From: Escherichia coli
Lineage (GTDB): Bacteria; Pseudomonadota; Gammaproteobacteria; Enterobacterales; Enterobacteriaceae
Direction: 5' to 3' (one strand)
DNA: 64,000 bases
Assembly (NCBI RefSeq): GCF_024700885.2
Contig: NZ_CP117014.1
Within the stretch, counting starts at the first letter, position 1. Each line of letters starts with the position of its first letter. Of this stretch, positions 288-64,000 are shown piece by piece. The notes beneath the pieces were generated by a model. The model made no database searches and was not told where the DNA came from. It saw nothing but the letters and a program-made list of their open reading frames with translations. A program made the translations under genes and the position numbers.

Positions 288-866
288 CTAATTTATCGAT
301 TCAATCGCCATCTGATACAACGTCATTTCATCGGCATTGTGCCGTATGAAATCTGCTTTTCCGCCTATTTTTCCATCAGCATGAACAGGGACCAGCCAGG
401 GATATTGTTCTCGGACCTCGGCTGGCGCTGCGTACTGGTGGTGCCATTTACACAAAGGGAGGACATATTTATGCGCGTTCTCTGCCGTTCTCCCGAAGAT
501 ATGGTGCAGGGATACCACTGGGCTATGTTGCCCGTGAATATGGCAGGCAATGCAGGGGAGAGTACCTATAGCGGTCTGTATCCGGCGTTCATCGGCTGTG
601 AGTGATCTGCCTTTCAGGCCGCGTGACGTGCGTGTTTTTTTGGGCGGAGCGGATACAGCTTTATCTTTTCTCCGCTGTTCATATTGCTTTGCTTTTTCAT
701 TTTTCTTTTGCCGATATTCAGGCGATGCGGCCTTTTCTCTCGCTCGCTGCTGCTGGCGTTGAGCTTGTTGAAGGCGCTTTGCCCTTTGTTCCTCTCGCCA
801 GGCCGGGTCAGCCAATTTTTGCATGGCTTTTTGTCTCTGTTTCTCCCAATAACTCTGTTTCTGCAT
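288..866 (-). CDS. ref: Ref-like HNH endonuclease (recombination enhancement function)
   Basis: 192 aa; Cys/His motifs LPCIACHIHG, SLHHIFGRT, PLCKWHH, APAEVREQYPWLVPVHADG match my recollection of P1 Ref. Confidence 0.65.
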   Translation of the reverse strand: MQKQSYWEKQRQKAMQKLADPAWREEQRAKRLQQAQRQQQRAREKAASPEYRQKKNEKAKQYEQRRKDKAVSAPPKKTRTSRGLKGRSLTADERRIQTAIGTLPCIACHIHGQHSPVVSLHHIFGRTAENAHKYVLPLCKWHHQYAAPAEVREQYPWLVPVHADGKIGGKADFIRHNADEMTLYQMAIESIN

Positions 867-51012: not shown

Positions 51013-51048
51013 ATGCTTATTGGATACATTCGCATATCAACAAATGAT
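51013..51048 (+). pseudogene. Relic of a second invertase 5-prime end (MLIGYIRISTND...) in inverted orientation
   Basis: About 80% identical to the first 36 bp of the intact invertase gene (51698-51663) but frame diverges immediately. Confidence 0.5.
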
Positions 51049-51125: not shown

Positions 51126-51698
51126 TTACATTTCAGGTTGCGTTATGACAGTCCCAACAGGGTGATAGCGGTAGATCGTTGACAGTCCAATATCATAGAT
51201 AATTGCCAGCCGCTTTCTGTCATACCCTTTCTGGAGCAATCTTGCGATCTGCTCATGCTGCTCCTTCGTCAGTTTCGGGCGACGTCCTCCAACTCTTCCT
51301 TGTGCTCGCGCAGCAGCCAGTCCTGCCAGCGTGCGCTCAACTATCAGTTCACGCTCCATTTCTGCCAGTGCACCCATCATATGAAAAAAGAACCTTCCCA
51401 TCGGAGTGCTGGTATCGATTGAATCCGTCAGACTGCGAAAATTGACACCTTTTGCGCGTAACTCTTCTGTGAGAGCAATGAGGTGTTTCATTCTTCTACC
51501 CAACCGATCCAGCTTCCAGACCACCAATGTATCCCCTCTTTTAAGGCACTTTAAAGCGCGTTTCAGGCCTGGTCGTTCCGACTTGGTTCCGCTCATTTTG
51601 TCCTCAAAAATCTGTTCACATCCTGCGCACATTAATGCATTGCGTTGCAAATCTGTGTTTTGGTCATTTGTTGACACACGTATGTAGCCAATCAGCAT
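51126..51698 (-). CDS. cin: Serine DNA invertase (Cin/Gin/Hin family)
   Basis: MLIGYIRVSTNDQNTDLQ...LVVWKLDRLGR...C-terminal HTH (GLSTIYRY); about 190 aa from ATG at 51698; adjacent invertible segment. Confidence 0.85.
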   Translation of the reverse strand: MLIGYIRVSTNDQNTDLQRNALMCAGCEQIFEDKMSGTKSERPGLKRALKCLKRGDTLVVWKLDRLGRRMKHLIALTEELRAKGVNFRSLTDSIDTSTPMGRFFFHMMGALAEMERELIVERTLAGLAAARAQGRVGGRRPKLTKEQHEQIARLLQKGYDRKRLAIIYDIGLSTIYRYHPVGTVITQPEM

Positions 51699-51742: not shown

Positions 51743-51768
51743 GGGAGGATTTGAGAGATAAACGTTGG
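51743..51768. repeat. Left crossover site (cix/gix-like) of the invertible segment
   Basis: Reverse complement TTCTCCCAAACC-AA-CGTTTATCTCTC; inner half-site identical to the right site. Confidence 0.65.
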
Positions 51769-51769
51769 T

Positions 51770-52123
51770 TTGGGAGAAGCGGCAAAACGGAATGTGGGCA
51801 CAGGAGATAATCAGATACCGGATATGGGAGCATTCGCTTCTGGTTCGGGATGGTTCAGGCTACCAGGTGGATATATTGTTCAGTTTGGCACTTTTTCAGG
51901 AAACACGACCCGCTTTATCAGTGGACACTTCCCTATACCATTCCCTAATCGGCCGATGGTTTCAGTCAGTGTTATGTCTGATGCCGTTCAGTCAGACCCG
52001 TCGAATCCTGCCCCGCATGTTTTGTCTGTAAATTTTGAACATATCAGTAATTCAGCGTGGCGTGTGGCAACCAGTGATATCTCACAGCAATACAGATTCA
52101 GTTATATTTCGATAGGATGGTAG
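51770..52123 (+). CDS. Alternative tail-fibre C-terminal exon (Sv-prime), currently silent
   Basis: Starts directly at the left crossover site; no own ATG; would fuse in frame to ...YLGLGE of the fibre after inversion. Confidence 0.6.
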
Positions 52124-52566
52124 AAATGCAGAAATATATTTTCAGTGCCGATAAAAATGCGTTTTTCCCTGTGGAGCTTAAAATCGCTTATCAGGAATCC
52201 GGCGAATGGCCCGATGATGGAATCGAAATTGACGACACTGTTGCTGCCGAATTTATGAAGGAAGCACCAGAAGGAAAATACAGAGGTGTCATCGACGGAA
52301 TGCCTGCATGGATTGATATTCCACCGCCAACTCATGAGGAACAAATTGCCGCAGCCGAACTGAAAAAGCAGCAATTGATTAATCAGGTCAACGAATACAT
52401 AAACAGTAAGCAATGGCCTGGTAAAGCGGCGATTGGTCGCCTGAAAGGTGAGGAACTGGTGCAATATAATTTGTGGCTGGATTATCTGGACGCACTGGAA
52501 CTGGTCGATACTTCCAGTGCGCCAGATATTGAATGGCCTACGCCTCCGGCAGTTCAGGCCAGATGA
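52117..52566 (+). CDS. Alternative tail-fibre assembly chaperone (U-prime)
   Basis: 149 aa; C-terminal [23 protein letters not shown] parallels the other Tfa ([25 protein letters not shown]). Confidence 0.65.
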
Positions 52567-53131
52567 CATCAGGCGCGGTGCTGGTATCTGTTGCCTCCAC
52601 CGCGTCAATGTAATCCAGCACAGCGTTAAGTCGGGTGGTTTCTGCCTGCGTCAGCTTCCGCCCGGCCCGTAATTTCAGCTGAATCAGACTGATGGAAGCC
52701 ATTGCAGCATCAATCAGCGACTGGCGCTTTACTTCTGCCGCGTCTAGTGCGGCGCTATGCTGTGCCTCGGTATCCGTCACCCATTTCTCACCATCCCATT
52801 TATCGTATGGCGTTAACGGTGAAAGCGTGACATAACCGTCTTTGATGGCACCGATATAATCCACTGTAACAGCTGCGCCATTTTCTGTTGAGTAAACAGT
52901 CTCATTGCGATGGTCTTCTTCATGGCTCCATCCCTTACCCGTAAATACTGCCACTCTTCCCGGAATGTATTCGCCCGGGTCAATACCAGTGGAACAGGCG
53001 GGCATACTTACGCCAGTATTAATATATTCATCAGACCAGCCAGTATATTCATACGTAACTGCCTCATAATAAAAACAACGCATATTACCCGGTACTGTAG
53101 CCAGCCCATTTTCATCAAAAACAGGTTTCAT
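52538..53131 (-). CDS. Tail-fibre assembly chaperone (U), expressed orientation
   Basis: 197 aa; MKPVFDENG...Tfa-type sequence; directly downstream of the fibre gene. Confidence 0.7.
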   Translation of the reverse strand: MKPVFDENGLATVPGNMRCFYYEAVTYEYTGWSDEYINTGVSMPACSTGIDPGEYIPGRVAVFTGKGWSHEEDHRNETVYSTENGAAVTVDYIGAIKDGYVTLSPLTPYDKWDGEKWVTDTEAQHSAALDAAEVKRQSLIDAAMASISLIQLKLRAGRKLTQAETTRLNAVLDYIDAVEATDTSTAPDVIWPELPEA

Positions 53132-55740
53132 TATGCAGCCCTCACAATATAATTAAAGGCGATGTTACGTGGACGGTTTTCATTAGCTGTTGGCACGACA
53201 CGAGAGGCGTCGAATCCAAGGTCATCGGTTTTGCCTATATCAGTTGTGTTATTCGGCATTCTCGCTGATCGTGTTCCTGCATCGTAAAAAGCCCCTCTGA
53301 TTGCATCAAAAGACATACCGATCCCGCCATCTGCGAATCCCTCAATATTTCTTATTGCATCCCCCTGTGAAGATAATAATTGTCGCCCGGCATCCACTCC
53401 ACGTCCGTCATCCCAGCCACGAATAAATTCACCGCGTAAATCAGGCAATTTATTTGTCGGATAAACCTTTGCCAGTTCCGGGTATTCTTCAGCAGAAAAA
53501 GCCGCACCGTTGCATTTCAGCCAGCCTGTTGGCGGAGTGGCGGAAGGCCACGGAACAGGCACACCAACGGGTAATGCCGAACCTTCTCCCAAACCAAGGT
53601 AATTGAGGACATCTTTTATACTGCCCTTAGCGATAATAGCGCGACCAATAGCTGTAAGGGTTGTCAGCGCTGCGCGGTCTGCTCCGGTAAAATAAGGCAA
53701 CCGATCTGCTGCAGTGGCAAGTCCTGCCAGAGCAGTGAGCGTGGCATCTGCCGGTTGTTTTCCGTTTGCCAGATCGTATGCAGCCTTGACAGCTTTCGGT
53801 GTAGCGGCCAGCACTTCAGACGTGCTGTTAGTGGCACTACTGAGCTGAGTGATGCCTTTCGCTGTCAATGAAGCTGTTGGCACACCAGTGATCTGATTCC
53901 AGGGATGTATATGATTGGATGGTGCCTTTCCGGCTGCTAGATCGTATGCAGCTTTAACCGCTTTTGGAGTTGCAGCTAATGTTTCAGAAGTGCTGTTGGT
54001 GTCGCTACTGAGCTGAACTATCCCTTTTTGTGTCGTGGTTGCATCCTGGGCTGTGTACTTCCCGTTAGCCAGGTCATATGCAGCCTTGACAGCTTTCGGT
54101 GTAGCGGCCAGCACTTCAGACGTGCTGTTAGTGGCACTACTGAGCTGAGTGATGCCTTTCGCTGTCAATGAAGCTGTTGGCACACCAGTGATCTGATTCC
54201 AGGGATGTATATGATTGGATGGTGCCTTTCCGGCTGCTAGATCGTATGCAGCTTTAACCGCTTTTGGAGTTGCAGCTAATGTTTCAGAAGTGCTGTTGGT
54301 GTCGCTACTGAGCTGAACTATCCCTTTTTGTGTCGTGGTTGCATCCTGGGCTGTGTACTTCCCGTTAGCCAGGTCATATGCAGCCTTGACAGCTTTCGGT
54401 GTAGCGGCCAGCACTTCAGACGTGCTGTTAGTGGCACTACTGAGCTGAGTGATGCCTTTCGCTGTCAATGAAGCTGTTGGCACACCAGTGATCTGATTCC
54501 AGGGATGTATATGATTGGATGGTGCCTTTCCGGCTGCTAGATCGTATGCAGCTTTAACCGCTTTTGGAGTTGCAGCTAATGTTTCAGAAGTGCTGTTGGT
54601 GTCGCTACTGAGCTGAACTATCCCTTTTTGTGTCGTGGTTGCATCCTGGGCTGTGTACTTCCCGTTAGCCAGGTCATATGCAGCCTTGACAGCTTTCGGT
54701 GTAGCGGCCAGCACTTCAGACGTGCTGTTAGTGGCACTACTGAGCTGAGTGATGCCTTTCGCTGTCAATGAAGCTGTTGGCACACCAGTGATCTGATTCC
54801 AGGGATGTATATGATTGGATGGTGCCTTTCCGGCTGCTAGATCGTATGCAGCTTTAACCGCTTTTGGAGTTGCAGCTAATGTTTCAGAAGTGCTGTTGGT
54901 GTCGCTACTGAGCTGAACTATCCCTTTTTGTGTCGTGGTTGCATCCTGGGCTGTGTACTTCCCGTTAGCCAGGTCATATGCAGCCTTGACAGCTTTCGGT
55001 GTAGCGGCCAGCACTTCAGACGTGCTGTTAGTGGCACTACTGAGCTGAGTGATGCCTTTCGCTGTCAATGAAGCTGTTGGCACACCAGTGATCTGATTCC
55101 AGGGATGTATATGATTGGATGGTGCCTTTCCGGCTGCTAGATCGTATGCAGCCTTGACAGCTTTCGGTGTAGCCGCTTTTCTTTCTTCTGTACTGCTTAT
55201 TTCATTAGAGAATTCGACACCAACAGCCCGGTTAACCCGGTATTTAAGCACAATCATTTCTTTAGTCACAGCCGTTGCGCCGCTAGGCACGATAACTCGA
55301 CATAATTCAATTTGATTCTGCCCAATAGTATTGTCCGTACGCGCGTAAATTCTTGCAGCACTGACAGAAGATGCGCTATCTACCTGTGTCGTTTTTACAC
55401 CATGTTCAAAATTGGCTTCCAGCACAATAATGTTGGTAGCCCCTGCCTTTACCGAGACAGTCACATCTTCTATTTGCTGAACGGATATCTGAACATTATT
55501 TACATCTACTGAAGCAGCCCCTTTACCTTCGGAGTTTTCAGAAGTTATGCGGACACTCAACCCTGTGCCGGGAACCGGTTCAAATCCACAGTAAAAGCCA
55601 GGCAAAACAATATTTTTTAGTTTTCTGTTAAGAGCCAGACTACTATAGAGTTCGAAATATTGAACATCAGCAAGCAACGACTGTGAGACACCAGAGGATA
55701 GTGTCATTATGTTGTTCGTTTTATCAGCCCCCATAATCAA
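53131..55740 (-). CDS. Tail fibre protein S with tandem-repeat shaft and invertible C-terminus
   Basis: 869 aa; repeated ATPKAVKAAYDLA units; C-terminal GEFIRGWDDGRGVD...NIAFNYIVRAA; right crossover site inside the gene. Confidence 0.8.
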   Translation of the reverse strand: MIMGADKTNNIMTLSSGVSQSLLADVQYFELYSSLALNRKLKNIVLPGFYCGFEPVPGTGLSVRITSENSEGKGAASVDVNNVQISVQQIEDVTVSVKAGATNIIVLEANFEHGVKTTQVDSASSVSAARIYARTDNTIGQNQIELCRVIVPSGATAVTKEMIVLKYRVNRAVGVEFSNEISSTEERKAATPKAVKAAYDLAAGKAPSNHIHPWNQITGVPTASLTAKGITQLSSATNSTSEVLAATPKAVKAAYDLANGKYTAQDATTTQKGIVQLSSDTNSTSETLAATPKAVKAAYDLAAGKAPSNHIHPWNQITGVPTASLTAKGITQLSSATNSTSEVLAATPKAVKAAYDLANGKYTAQDATTTQKGIVQLSSDTNSTSETLAATPKAVKAAYDLAAGKAPSNHIHPWNQITGVPTASLTAKGITQLSSATNSTSEVLAATPKAVKAAYDLANGKYTAQDATTTQKGIVQLSSDTNSTSETLAATPKAVKAAYDLAAGKAPSNHIHPWNQITGVPTASLTAKGITQLSSATNSTSEVLAATPKAVKAAYDLANGKYTAQDATTTQKGIVQLSSDTNSTSETLAATPKAVKAAYDLAAGKAPSNHIHPWNQITGVPTASLTAKGITQLSSATNSTSEVLAATPKAVKAAYDLANGKQPADATLTALAGLATAADRLPYFTGADRAALTTLTAIGRAIIAKGSIKDVLNYLGLGEGSALPVGVPVPWPSATPPTGWLKCNGAAFSAEEYPELAKVYPTNKLPDLRGEFIRGWDDGRGVDAGRQLLSSQGDAIRNIEGFADGGIGMSFDAIRGAFYDAGTRSARMPNNTTDIGKTDDLGFDASRVVPTANENRPRNIAFNYIVRAA
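53584..53609. repeat. Right crossover site (cix/gix-like) inside the tail-fibre gene
   Basis: TTCTCCCAAACC-AA-GGTAATTGAGGA, inverted relative to the left site; segment between sites about 1.84 kb. Confidence 0.65.
53761..55160. repeat. About 4.6 copies of a 300-bp tandem repeat inside the tail-fibre gene (copies 2-5 perfect)
   Basis: Identical text recurs at 54061, 54361, 54661, 54961; first copy at 53761 slightly divergent; encodes a 100-aa unit. Confidence 0.85.
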
Positions 55741-56183
55741 CCCTCAACTTGCTCGATTGTCATGAGAATACTGTAACGTTTACCTTTATAGAGGGTATCT
55801 TGCTGGGTGCAAAGCACACCAAAAGCCTGTTCCTCAGCATCAACAAGCACAAGCGTGTTAAAGTCGTAAGGCGTGTTATCCGGCATTCTTTCTTGAGGGA
55901 AGGCTGCATTGATCGTGATAATCCCATCCACGCTGGACAATATCAGATCGGACACAGCAAACTGTTGAGCGCCACTCAATTTAAAATCGAGCGGAATGTC
56001 CGCTATATTCCAGCCTCCTGCACCATTAGCAGTTACCAGACTAGATTTGCACCAATACGCCTTAGAGATAACAAAACGCGCACCTTTGCCGATCGCCGAC
56101 TCTGCGCGGCGTGAATAATAGTAGGAAAGTAATTGCGCCTTATACAGGCGGTTACCATCTCTTGCCTTTAAATTTTCAGCCAT
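55737..56183 (-). CDS. Tail-fibre-associated protein (gene R position)
   Basis: 148 aa; 4-bp overlap with the fibre gene start. Confidence 0.4.
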   Translation of the reverse strand: MAENLKARDGNRLYKAQLLSYYYSRRAESAIGKGARFVISKAYWCKSSLVTANGAGGWNIADIPLDFKLSGAQQFAVSDLILSSVDGIITINAAFPQERMPDNTPYDFNTLVLVDAEEQAFGVLCTQQDTLYKGKRYSILMTIEQVEG

Positions 56184-63732: not shown

Positions 63733-63941
63733 TTATCCACAGGATAGATCCAATATATAGATCCTGATTAGATCCATATAGTACCAAATAGATCCCGTAG
63801 CTCTTCAGGCCGCGCCACATAAGGCTTTAACCACTATTCAGATGTGTGCTGGAGGGAGAACGATGTGTGCTGACGGGAAAAATATGTGTGCTGGAGGGTT
63901 TTACATGTGTGCTGACGGGATGTAGGATGTGTGCTGACGGG
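63733..63941. other. Plasmid-type replication origin (oriR-like): DnaA box, GATC heptamer cluster, five iterons
   Basis: TTATCCACA at 63733-63741; AGATCC repeats at 63746-63795; five 21-bp-spaced iterons (G/C/T)ATGTGTGCTG(G/A)(A/C)GGG at 63841, 63862, 63883, 63904, 63926. Confidence 0.75.
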
Positions 63942-64000
63942 AAAAAAAGCCGGATATCCACTGTCGTAAACTTTATTCACAACATGACGGTAACTTATTG

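Follow-up and report, generated by a model that had tools for sequence, protein, structure and literature searches.

A probable recombination-prone repeat array in the shaft-coding part of the tail-fibre gene of a D6-like phage-plasmid of Escherichia coli

Introduction

Does a block of identical repeats within a phage-plasmid tail-fibre gene represent a genuine, length-variable part of the fibre and, if so, how and how quickly does its length change? Phage-plasmids of the P1 and D6 types are common in Escherichia coli, Salmonella, Shigella, and Klebsiella, some have resistance genes, and this fibre determines which hosts they infect. We address the question in a 64,000-nt stretch of E. coli DNA (contig NZ_CP117014.1 of RefSeq assembly GCF_024700885.2; hereafter, the window), in which a P1 S-like tail-fibre gene on the minus strand (53131..55734) contains a tandem array with a period of 300 bp. 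The array is very likely a genuine, recombination-prone repeat block that resembles a variable-number tandem repeat (VNTR) and lies in the constant, shaft-coding part of the fibre gene of a D6-like phage-plasmid.

Results

Tandem Repeats Finder places the array at 53762-55164 (period of 300, 4.7 copies, 99% matches, and no indels), and it is the sole large tandem array within the window. In a base-by-base self-comparison at an offset of 300, an exact match is unbroken across 53777-54852 (1076 nt), a length for which a chance origin is impossible, and the tract with perfect 300-bp periodicity, which has no strand, covers 1376 nt (53777..55152; 4.59 units and zero mismatches). With units in the register 53759/54059/54359/54659, those at 54059, 54359, and 54659 are mutually identical, and the unit at 53759-54058 has four differences (53761, 53767, 53773, and 53776) at the outer edge of the array. 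A partial end copy is identical across 54959-55152 (194 nt) and then has six substitutions in 21 nt (55153-55173), beyond which is unrelated, non-repeated sequence that encodes the N-terminal domain. The original prediction had been of four identical 300-bp units and a slightly divergent fifth. The array is real, has a 300-bp period, and is identical at the DNA level, but the fifth unit is a partial copy. Units are head-to-tail, identical, and in frame, as in a VNTR.

Repetition has two tiers. When translated, the array has ten ATPKAVKAAYDLA motifs with an alternating spacing of 56 and 44 aa, which agrees with the earlier description of a 100-aa repeat with two sub-units. The longer sub-unit, A, is 168 nt and 56 aa (...AAGKAPSNHIHPWNQ...), and the shorter, b, is 132 nt and 44 aa (...ANGKYTAQDATTTQKG...). 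Both open with ATPKAVKAAYDLA, the coding of which differs by 11 synonymous changes in 39 nt. Although A and b encode the same 13-aa motif, their DNA identity is ∼75% and their longest common exact run is 12 nt. Judged from these differences, A and b appear to be an old duplication that has been kept by selection on the protein. Conversely, because whole 300-bp A+b units are identical, they must have been amplified or homogenised recently.

Two candidates that bear on the array were considered and rejected. Compared with the whole window, the 300-bp unit has no copy outside of the array, so a gene-conversion donor elsewhere in the window was dismissed because the unit matches nothing there. The opposite strand was likewise examined for a hidden feature, and there is no plus-strand open reading frame (ORF) of at least 80 aa between 53153 and 55748.

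The array encodes the shaft of the tail fibre. From its ATG (MGADKTNN...), the gene encodes 867 aa; the ORF list starts at the TTG at 55740, but orthologues are annotated from MGADKTNN, which favors the ATG at 55734. Ten Pfam matches to PF03406 (Phage_fiber_2) are followed by a Collar domain at aa 726-773. Nine of the ten are full-length, with i-Evalues of 1.6e-19 to 5.9e-19, and the first motif is partial (2.2e-09). The strong PHROG matches of the protein are to tail-fibre families, and the neighbours of the gene are P1-type (P1 R-like, gp16-like, baseplate, two tail-fibre assembly chaperone, and serine invertase genes). The assignment to a tail-fibre shaft is therefore upheld by domains, families, and neighbours alike.

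The order of parts in the protein is a D6-type N-terminal domain, (A+b)n PF03406 repeats, a short constant tail, and a tip that is exchangeable by an invertase. The N-terminal domain (aa 1-187; 55174..55734, minus strand) matches, at 97.3% DNA identity, the 5' end of orf35 of phage D6, annotated as "long tail fiber protein", and is presumed to be the baseplate-proximal attachment part. It is followed by the array of ten PF03406 motifs (53758..55173, minus strand), which reads A0 b0 A1 b0 A1 b0 A1 b0 A1 Z, where numbers denote DNA alleles and Z is the truncated last motif. The non-repeated end of the constant part (QPADATL...LNYLGLGE; 53601..53757, minus strand) is 100% identical in three relatives. 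A cix-like crossover site (53583..53600) falls at ...LNYLGLGE, equivalent to the place where cixR is annotated in D6, and the whole array is therefore part of the constant region, with the switchable tip downstream of it. The variable C-terminal tip now joined to the gene, which has the Collar domain, is at 53131..53582 on the minus strand, as determined with Pfam and by comparison with relatives.

Copy number varies among relatives. Fibre genes were compared across 17 related replicons, with each unit assigned to a DNA allele; arrays in these genes have 3-15 motifs and encode proteins of 611-1176 aa. Plasmids pKY1497_2 from Japan (b1 A1 b0 A1 Z; five motifs) and p1_000533 from China (b1 A1 b0 A2 Z) have a common array architecture. 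There are 11 motifs in pCUVET20-PYO4.3, b0 A1 (b0 A2)x4 Z, as well as in pB2C_96, b2 A3 (b0 A3)x4 Z. The array of pF719-4 is b0 A1 A4 A4 A5 Z and that of pF374-2 is b0 A1 A5 A6 b3 A7 A5 A5 Z (nine motifs), to which pGF4-B adds a second A5 A6 b3 A7 A5 A5 block (15 motifs). Five plasmids with an additional 237-aa D6-type segment have 7-9 motifs, plasmids with a P1-type N-terminus have 3 to 12, and a P2-like chromosomal prophage has five that are diverged.

Length can differ even where the surrounding sequence hardly does. The closest flanks are those of pB2C_96 (99.83% identity) and pKY1497_2 (99.66%), yet these plasmids have 11 and 5 motifs, respectively, versus 10 in the window. Over 6005 bp that take in the upstream flank and the constant part of the gene, the sole difference between pGF4-B (Switzerland) and pF374-2 (France) is one in-register 972-bp block, indicating that length changed in this pair without any point substitution. 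Copy number, which had been predicted to be variable, thus differs among related complete plasmids and between close relatives, as in a VNTR, in what is a comparison of assemblies and not of reads.

Alleles are shared within arrays more than between them. Within arrays, 46% of pairs of A units and 75% of pairs of b units are identical, compared with 9% and 17%, respectively, between arrays. Each plasmid repeats its own DNA allele, units are lineage-specific, and units at the edges differ more than internal ones. Repetition of an own allele combined with divergent edges is what unequal exchange or homogenisation usually leaves behind. Together with A and b halves that have diverged at synonymous sites, the repeated alleles substantiate the proposal of a recent expansion or homogenisation.

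The array is also found with the P1-type fibre, in 136 records among complete E. coli genomes. An evenly spaced sample of those records has one common colinear class and records that are 1200, 1032, and 899 bp shorter, as well as single-piece matches that start at query positions 349, 649, and 949. These length classes are consistent with whole-unit steps, in multiples of 300/132 bp, where BLAST spans were used only if they were sums of 300/168/132 bp and non-fitting rows (e.g., H161), probably the result of piece tiling, were ignored.

Assemblers fail at the array. When the N-terminal domain was searched against a very large collection of proteins, most of the matches were "partial" proteins of 157-312 aa. 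For one such partial protein, contigs stop 54 nt into the array in five of five draft or metagenome contigs. In a draft genome of Shigella flexneri (GCA_053371775.1), the first 937 nt of the gene are identical to those in the window, after which a 100-N gap takes the place of the array. The warning that the array is an assembly hazard was thus justified. At the array, short-read assemblies fragment the fibre gene or give it the wrong size, and database fibre proteins are often truncated as a consequence. Annotation pipelines also handle the gene poorly. The fibre gene of pF719-4 (relative L003, NZ_OY754396.1, 2870-4908) is called a pseudogene by PGAP ("missing N- and C-terminus") despite having one open frame, and that of pZ1323CEC0017-3 (L013, NZ_CP148411.1) is truly disrupted after the array.

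The same failures raise the possibility that the array exists, but that its unit count and identity stem from collapse, expansion, or consensus polishing. Broken contigs, the gap in the S. flexneri draft, and the preponderance of "partial" proteins with the N-terminal domain are what such an artefact would predict. However, the array is in frame and its flanks are intact, and at least 16 independently assembled complete replicons have comparable arrays with two to five identical units. Some assemblies resolve units that differ by single nucleotides (e.g., A11 A11 A12 A11 A13 in relative L014), and the hybrid first unit of the window recurs in the independent S. flexneri draft. We therefore consider an artefact improbable.

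Codons within units hold footprints of how arrays may change. A units that follow b have A-type codons across the whole motif, whereas those preceded by another A or by the N-terminal domain have b-type codons first and then A-type codons. The switch occurs after nt 6-8 in A4, 9-14 in A5 and A6, and 21-29 in A0 of the window. A0, the first unit of the array (55006..55173, minus strand), is accordingly a b/A hybrid, with b-type codons in its first ∼21-28 nt and A-type codons in the rest. Three distinct hybrid junctions imply that the 132-bp b body was deleted at least three separate times. From its codons, we infer that A0 arose when a crossover in the motif-coding stretch, around GCTGCATA, deleted 132 bp.

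These footprints suggest two routes of change. In the first, whole units and higher-order blocks (300-bp, 168-bp, and 972-bp) would be gained or lost when 300-bp (or 168-bp) units undergo unequal homologous exchange or slip during replication. In the second, rare crossovers on 5-9 nt of homology within the motif stretch would remove the b body and leave b/A hybrids. The array in the window would be an 11-motif b(Ab)n array after a 132-bp deletion at its first unit. The same element encodes a homologue of P1 Ref (291-866, minus strand), which is 96.9% identical to D6 orf87. P1 Ref is a RecA-dependent endonuclease that acts as a recombination enhancement nuclease.

The setting is that of a D6-like, P1-related phage-plasmid. 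Large parts of window positions 1-25000 have 96-98% identity to phage D6, and the backbone is syntenic and highly identical (pac, c1, a cre-like recombinase [dre in D6], ref, and baseplate/tail genes); the R, gp16, and baseplate genes near the fibre gene match as well. Best plasmid matches are to 91-96 kb, non-mobilizable replicons of E. coli, Salmonella, and Shigella. The fibre gene of D6 was compared as well, and it encodes a different shaft without such an array. Directly upstream of the fibre gene in the window is the P1 R-like tail-fibre gene (55737..56183, minus strand; phrog_2032), the identical neighbour of which in draft genomes matches PF26881 (Phage_P1_tail_fiber_R).

Downstream of the array is an invertible segment. 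The crossover site within the fibre gene is one half of an 18-nt inverted repeat (94%), with its partner at the far end of the segment (51762..51779); neither site has a strand. Between the sites are a U-like tail-fibre assembly chaperone gene for the expressed tip (52538..53131, minus strand; phrog_105, E 1.4e-82) and, on the plus strand and silent in the present orientation, an alternative U'-like chaperone gene (52117..52566; phrog_188, E 1.7e-63) and an alternative Sv'-like fibre tip identified from its translation (51770..52123). In relatives L004 and L008, as well as in the S. flexneri draft, it is the Sv'-like kind of tip that is joined to the fibre gene. A Cin/Min-type serine DNA invertase of 190 aa from MLIGYIRVSTND is encoded at 51126..51698 on the minus strand (phrog_125, E 1.1e-95).

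Variations on this arrangement were observed in the window and in relatives. Just past the 3' end of the invertase gene, positions 51013-51047 on the plus strand are a 35-nt inverted copy (83% complementary) of its 5' end (51664-51698), which reads MLIGYIRISTND and then degenerates. In sequence, it resembles what is left of another invertase gene in the opposite orientation, and recombinase genes, partial or whole, are oriented likewise in relatives L004 and L008. In L005 (NZ_CP069886.1), L007 (NZ_CP135715.1), and L014-L016, five to seven short "phage tail protein" segments follow the fibre gene. Such runs correspond to a p15B Min-like multiple-inversion region, and the window has the simple two-state form. 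Elsewhere in the window, at 63841-63942, is a 21-bp tandem repeat (4.8 copies, 74% matches, and a consensus of GATGTGTGCTGAAGGGAGAAC), which is reminiscent of the iterons bound by RepA in the P1 plasmid replicon.

Discussion

Several points weigh against reading the array as a recombination-prone, VNTR-like block of the fibre shaft, or at least against parts of that reading. Collapse or polishing could affect both copy number and perfect identity in the assembly of the window. A contribution of Ref and RecA, by which Ref might make repeats on its own element recombine more often, is speculation. The step from array length to physical fibre length, adsorption, and host range is one that we infer, and among solved structures the only match to the repeat is a single motif, residues 111-150 of Mu S, a region without detailed resolution in the Mu cryo-electron microscopy paper. 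Among related P1-type plasmids, those of three derivatives of one strain (2020N21-110, -15, and -24) have identical arrays and differ in sequence only from directly after the crossover site, reflecting the inversion state of the tip, and plasmids pSX4-3 and pSX48-3 have one fibre protein accession in common, consistent with short-term stability. Many P1-type plasmids have one and the same 12-motif array, which implies that the rate of change is modest or that length is under selection.

The same observations bear on tempo. A programmed, high-frequency switch would make the array a contingency locus that changes length within a clone, parallel to the invertible tip. Perfectly identical 300-bp units, a Ref homologue on the same element, and the change in length without point mutation between pGF4-B and pF374-2 are compatible with such a locus. 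However, the 2020N21-110 derivatives were caught in three different tip arrangements with the same array, and identical arrays are present in separate isolates and in different countries. Furthermore, no dedicated recombinase site is in or beside the array, and the only inverted-repeat sites are downstream of it. High-frequency change within a clonal population was not seen, in a small sample that provides weak evidence. We consider a programmed switch very improbable, and rapid switching resembling phase variation was rejected because the derivatives keep the same array, again in a small clonal sample. Arrays that are identical despite tip inversion suggest instead that the array varies over evolutionary and epidemiological time.

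A recombination-prone block in the shaft has potential consequences for fibre length. Fibres of the P1, Mu, and P2 types are trimers, and presumably, so is the fibre encoded in the window. Every A unit has an HxH motif, SNHIHPW (aa 208/210, 308/310, 408/410, 508/510, and 608/610; A units within 53806-55173). Variants in relatives are SSHTH, SSHKH, and ASHTH, and b units lack HxH. The same kind of motif is in the pyocin R1/R2 fibre, T4 gp37, and P2 gpV, a likeness by sequence only. HxH motifs from three chains form buried octahedral iron sites in trimeric fibres, and, according to a published analysis of pyocin fibres, a repeating structure lets fibre length be adjusted (PMC6116203). In Pseudomonas tailocins, fibre-gene length haplotypes correlate with killing range (bioRxiv 10.1101/2023.04.17.536465). 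With every unit in the array, the shaft would lengthen by a constant amount, and with every A unit it would gain one HxH site, such that reach and flexibility would follow from array length, whichever receptor-binding tip is joined. On the basis of trimeric fibres, the pyocin analysis, HxH sites, and tailocin length classes, the array likely sets the length and stiffness of the shaft independently of the tip.

Alternatively, array length may be a neutral by-product of repeat recombination that drifts, with any length tolerated and no effect on adsorption or host range. Lengths of 3-15 motifs and irregular orders (BAAAA and BBABABA) all keep the frame open, and there is no visible association of the array with tip type, the latter because tips are invertible. 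Conversely, conservation of the protein motif despite saturated synonymous change between A and b suggests that the repeat itself is under selection. Recurrence of the 12-motif class across many P1-type plasmids also speaks against neutrality. In other fibres, repeat number is argued to tune binding geometry (PMC6116203), and the tailocin haplotypes associate length with killing range (bioRxiv 10.1101/2023.04.17.536465). Neutral drift in length is therefore a possibility to be taken seriously, but one that we somewhat doubt.

Tip inversion and array change are two independent sources of variation within one gene. We tentatively extend this to a further, rather unlikely reading in which the fibre gene diversifies on two axes, a fast choice of tip by the invertase and a slower, recombination-driven change of shaft length in steps of 44/56/100 aa, with selection matching length or HxH number to the depth of O-antigen or capsule. 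As in the systems of P1 Cin, Mu Gin, and p15B Min, a serine invertase gene is adjacent and inverted sites flank an opposite alternative tip and chaperone. Those systems change the tip by site-specific inversion, whereas the array changes by homology-driven gain and loss.

The shaft repeats belong to a known kind. Fibres with PF03406 (lambda Stf, Mu S, P1 S/p15B, and P2 H-type) have the same family in the same place, between the attachment domain and the tip. They differ from the array described here, which is two-tiered: A and b form an old pair, and this pair was amplified into identical 300-bp units. Repeated motifs in p15B and P1 fibres were reportedly described by Sandmeier et al. in the early 1990s, and duplications in T4 gp37 are said to expand host range (Tetart et al. 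1996), a precedent for effects of fibre duplications. Intragenic VNTRs in surface proteins similarly have identical units in frame, polymorphism in copy number, and more divergent terminal units, but their units are short, in contrast to the 300 bp here. In the literature on copy number of tail-fibre repeats (phage-plasmids, P1-like phages, p15B, and PF03406), array variation was not found described, where the 1992 paper on p15B/P1 fibres was outside of the coverage. Tandem PF03406 repeats in mosaic fibre genes are a known class and the array behaves like an ordinary intragenic VNTR, unsurprising to a specialist.

The repeats are not confined to plasmids. The P2-like prophage is in a chromosome (L011, NZ_CP098187.1, near tatD/rfaH), and its fibre, which has its own invertase, has repeat and constant-tail DNA that is ∼97% identical. 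Fibres of P1-type plasmids and of this prophage thus have the same DNA module, in copies that are diverged in the prophage, and the shaft module moves between unrelated phage types. The GC content of the array is 0.50-0.51, compared with 0.43-0.45 in its flanks, and its GC skew is opposite to that of the flanking fibre and tail genes (window 53600-55200). This composition is consistent with horizontal import of the shaft module.

The array leaves current understanding of tail fibres unchanged and provides a clean example along with a caution for annotation and assembly. It is also a natural size marker that tells apart otherwise identical plasmids, as demonstrated by a 972-bp difference without a single-nucleotide polymorphism in 6 kb. 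If length affects adsorption, natural variants with 5, 10, and 15 motifs are a ready length series. Were diversification on two axes true, array length would be a determinant of host range in phage-plasmids of the P1 and D6 types, and an engineerable "reach" dial.

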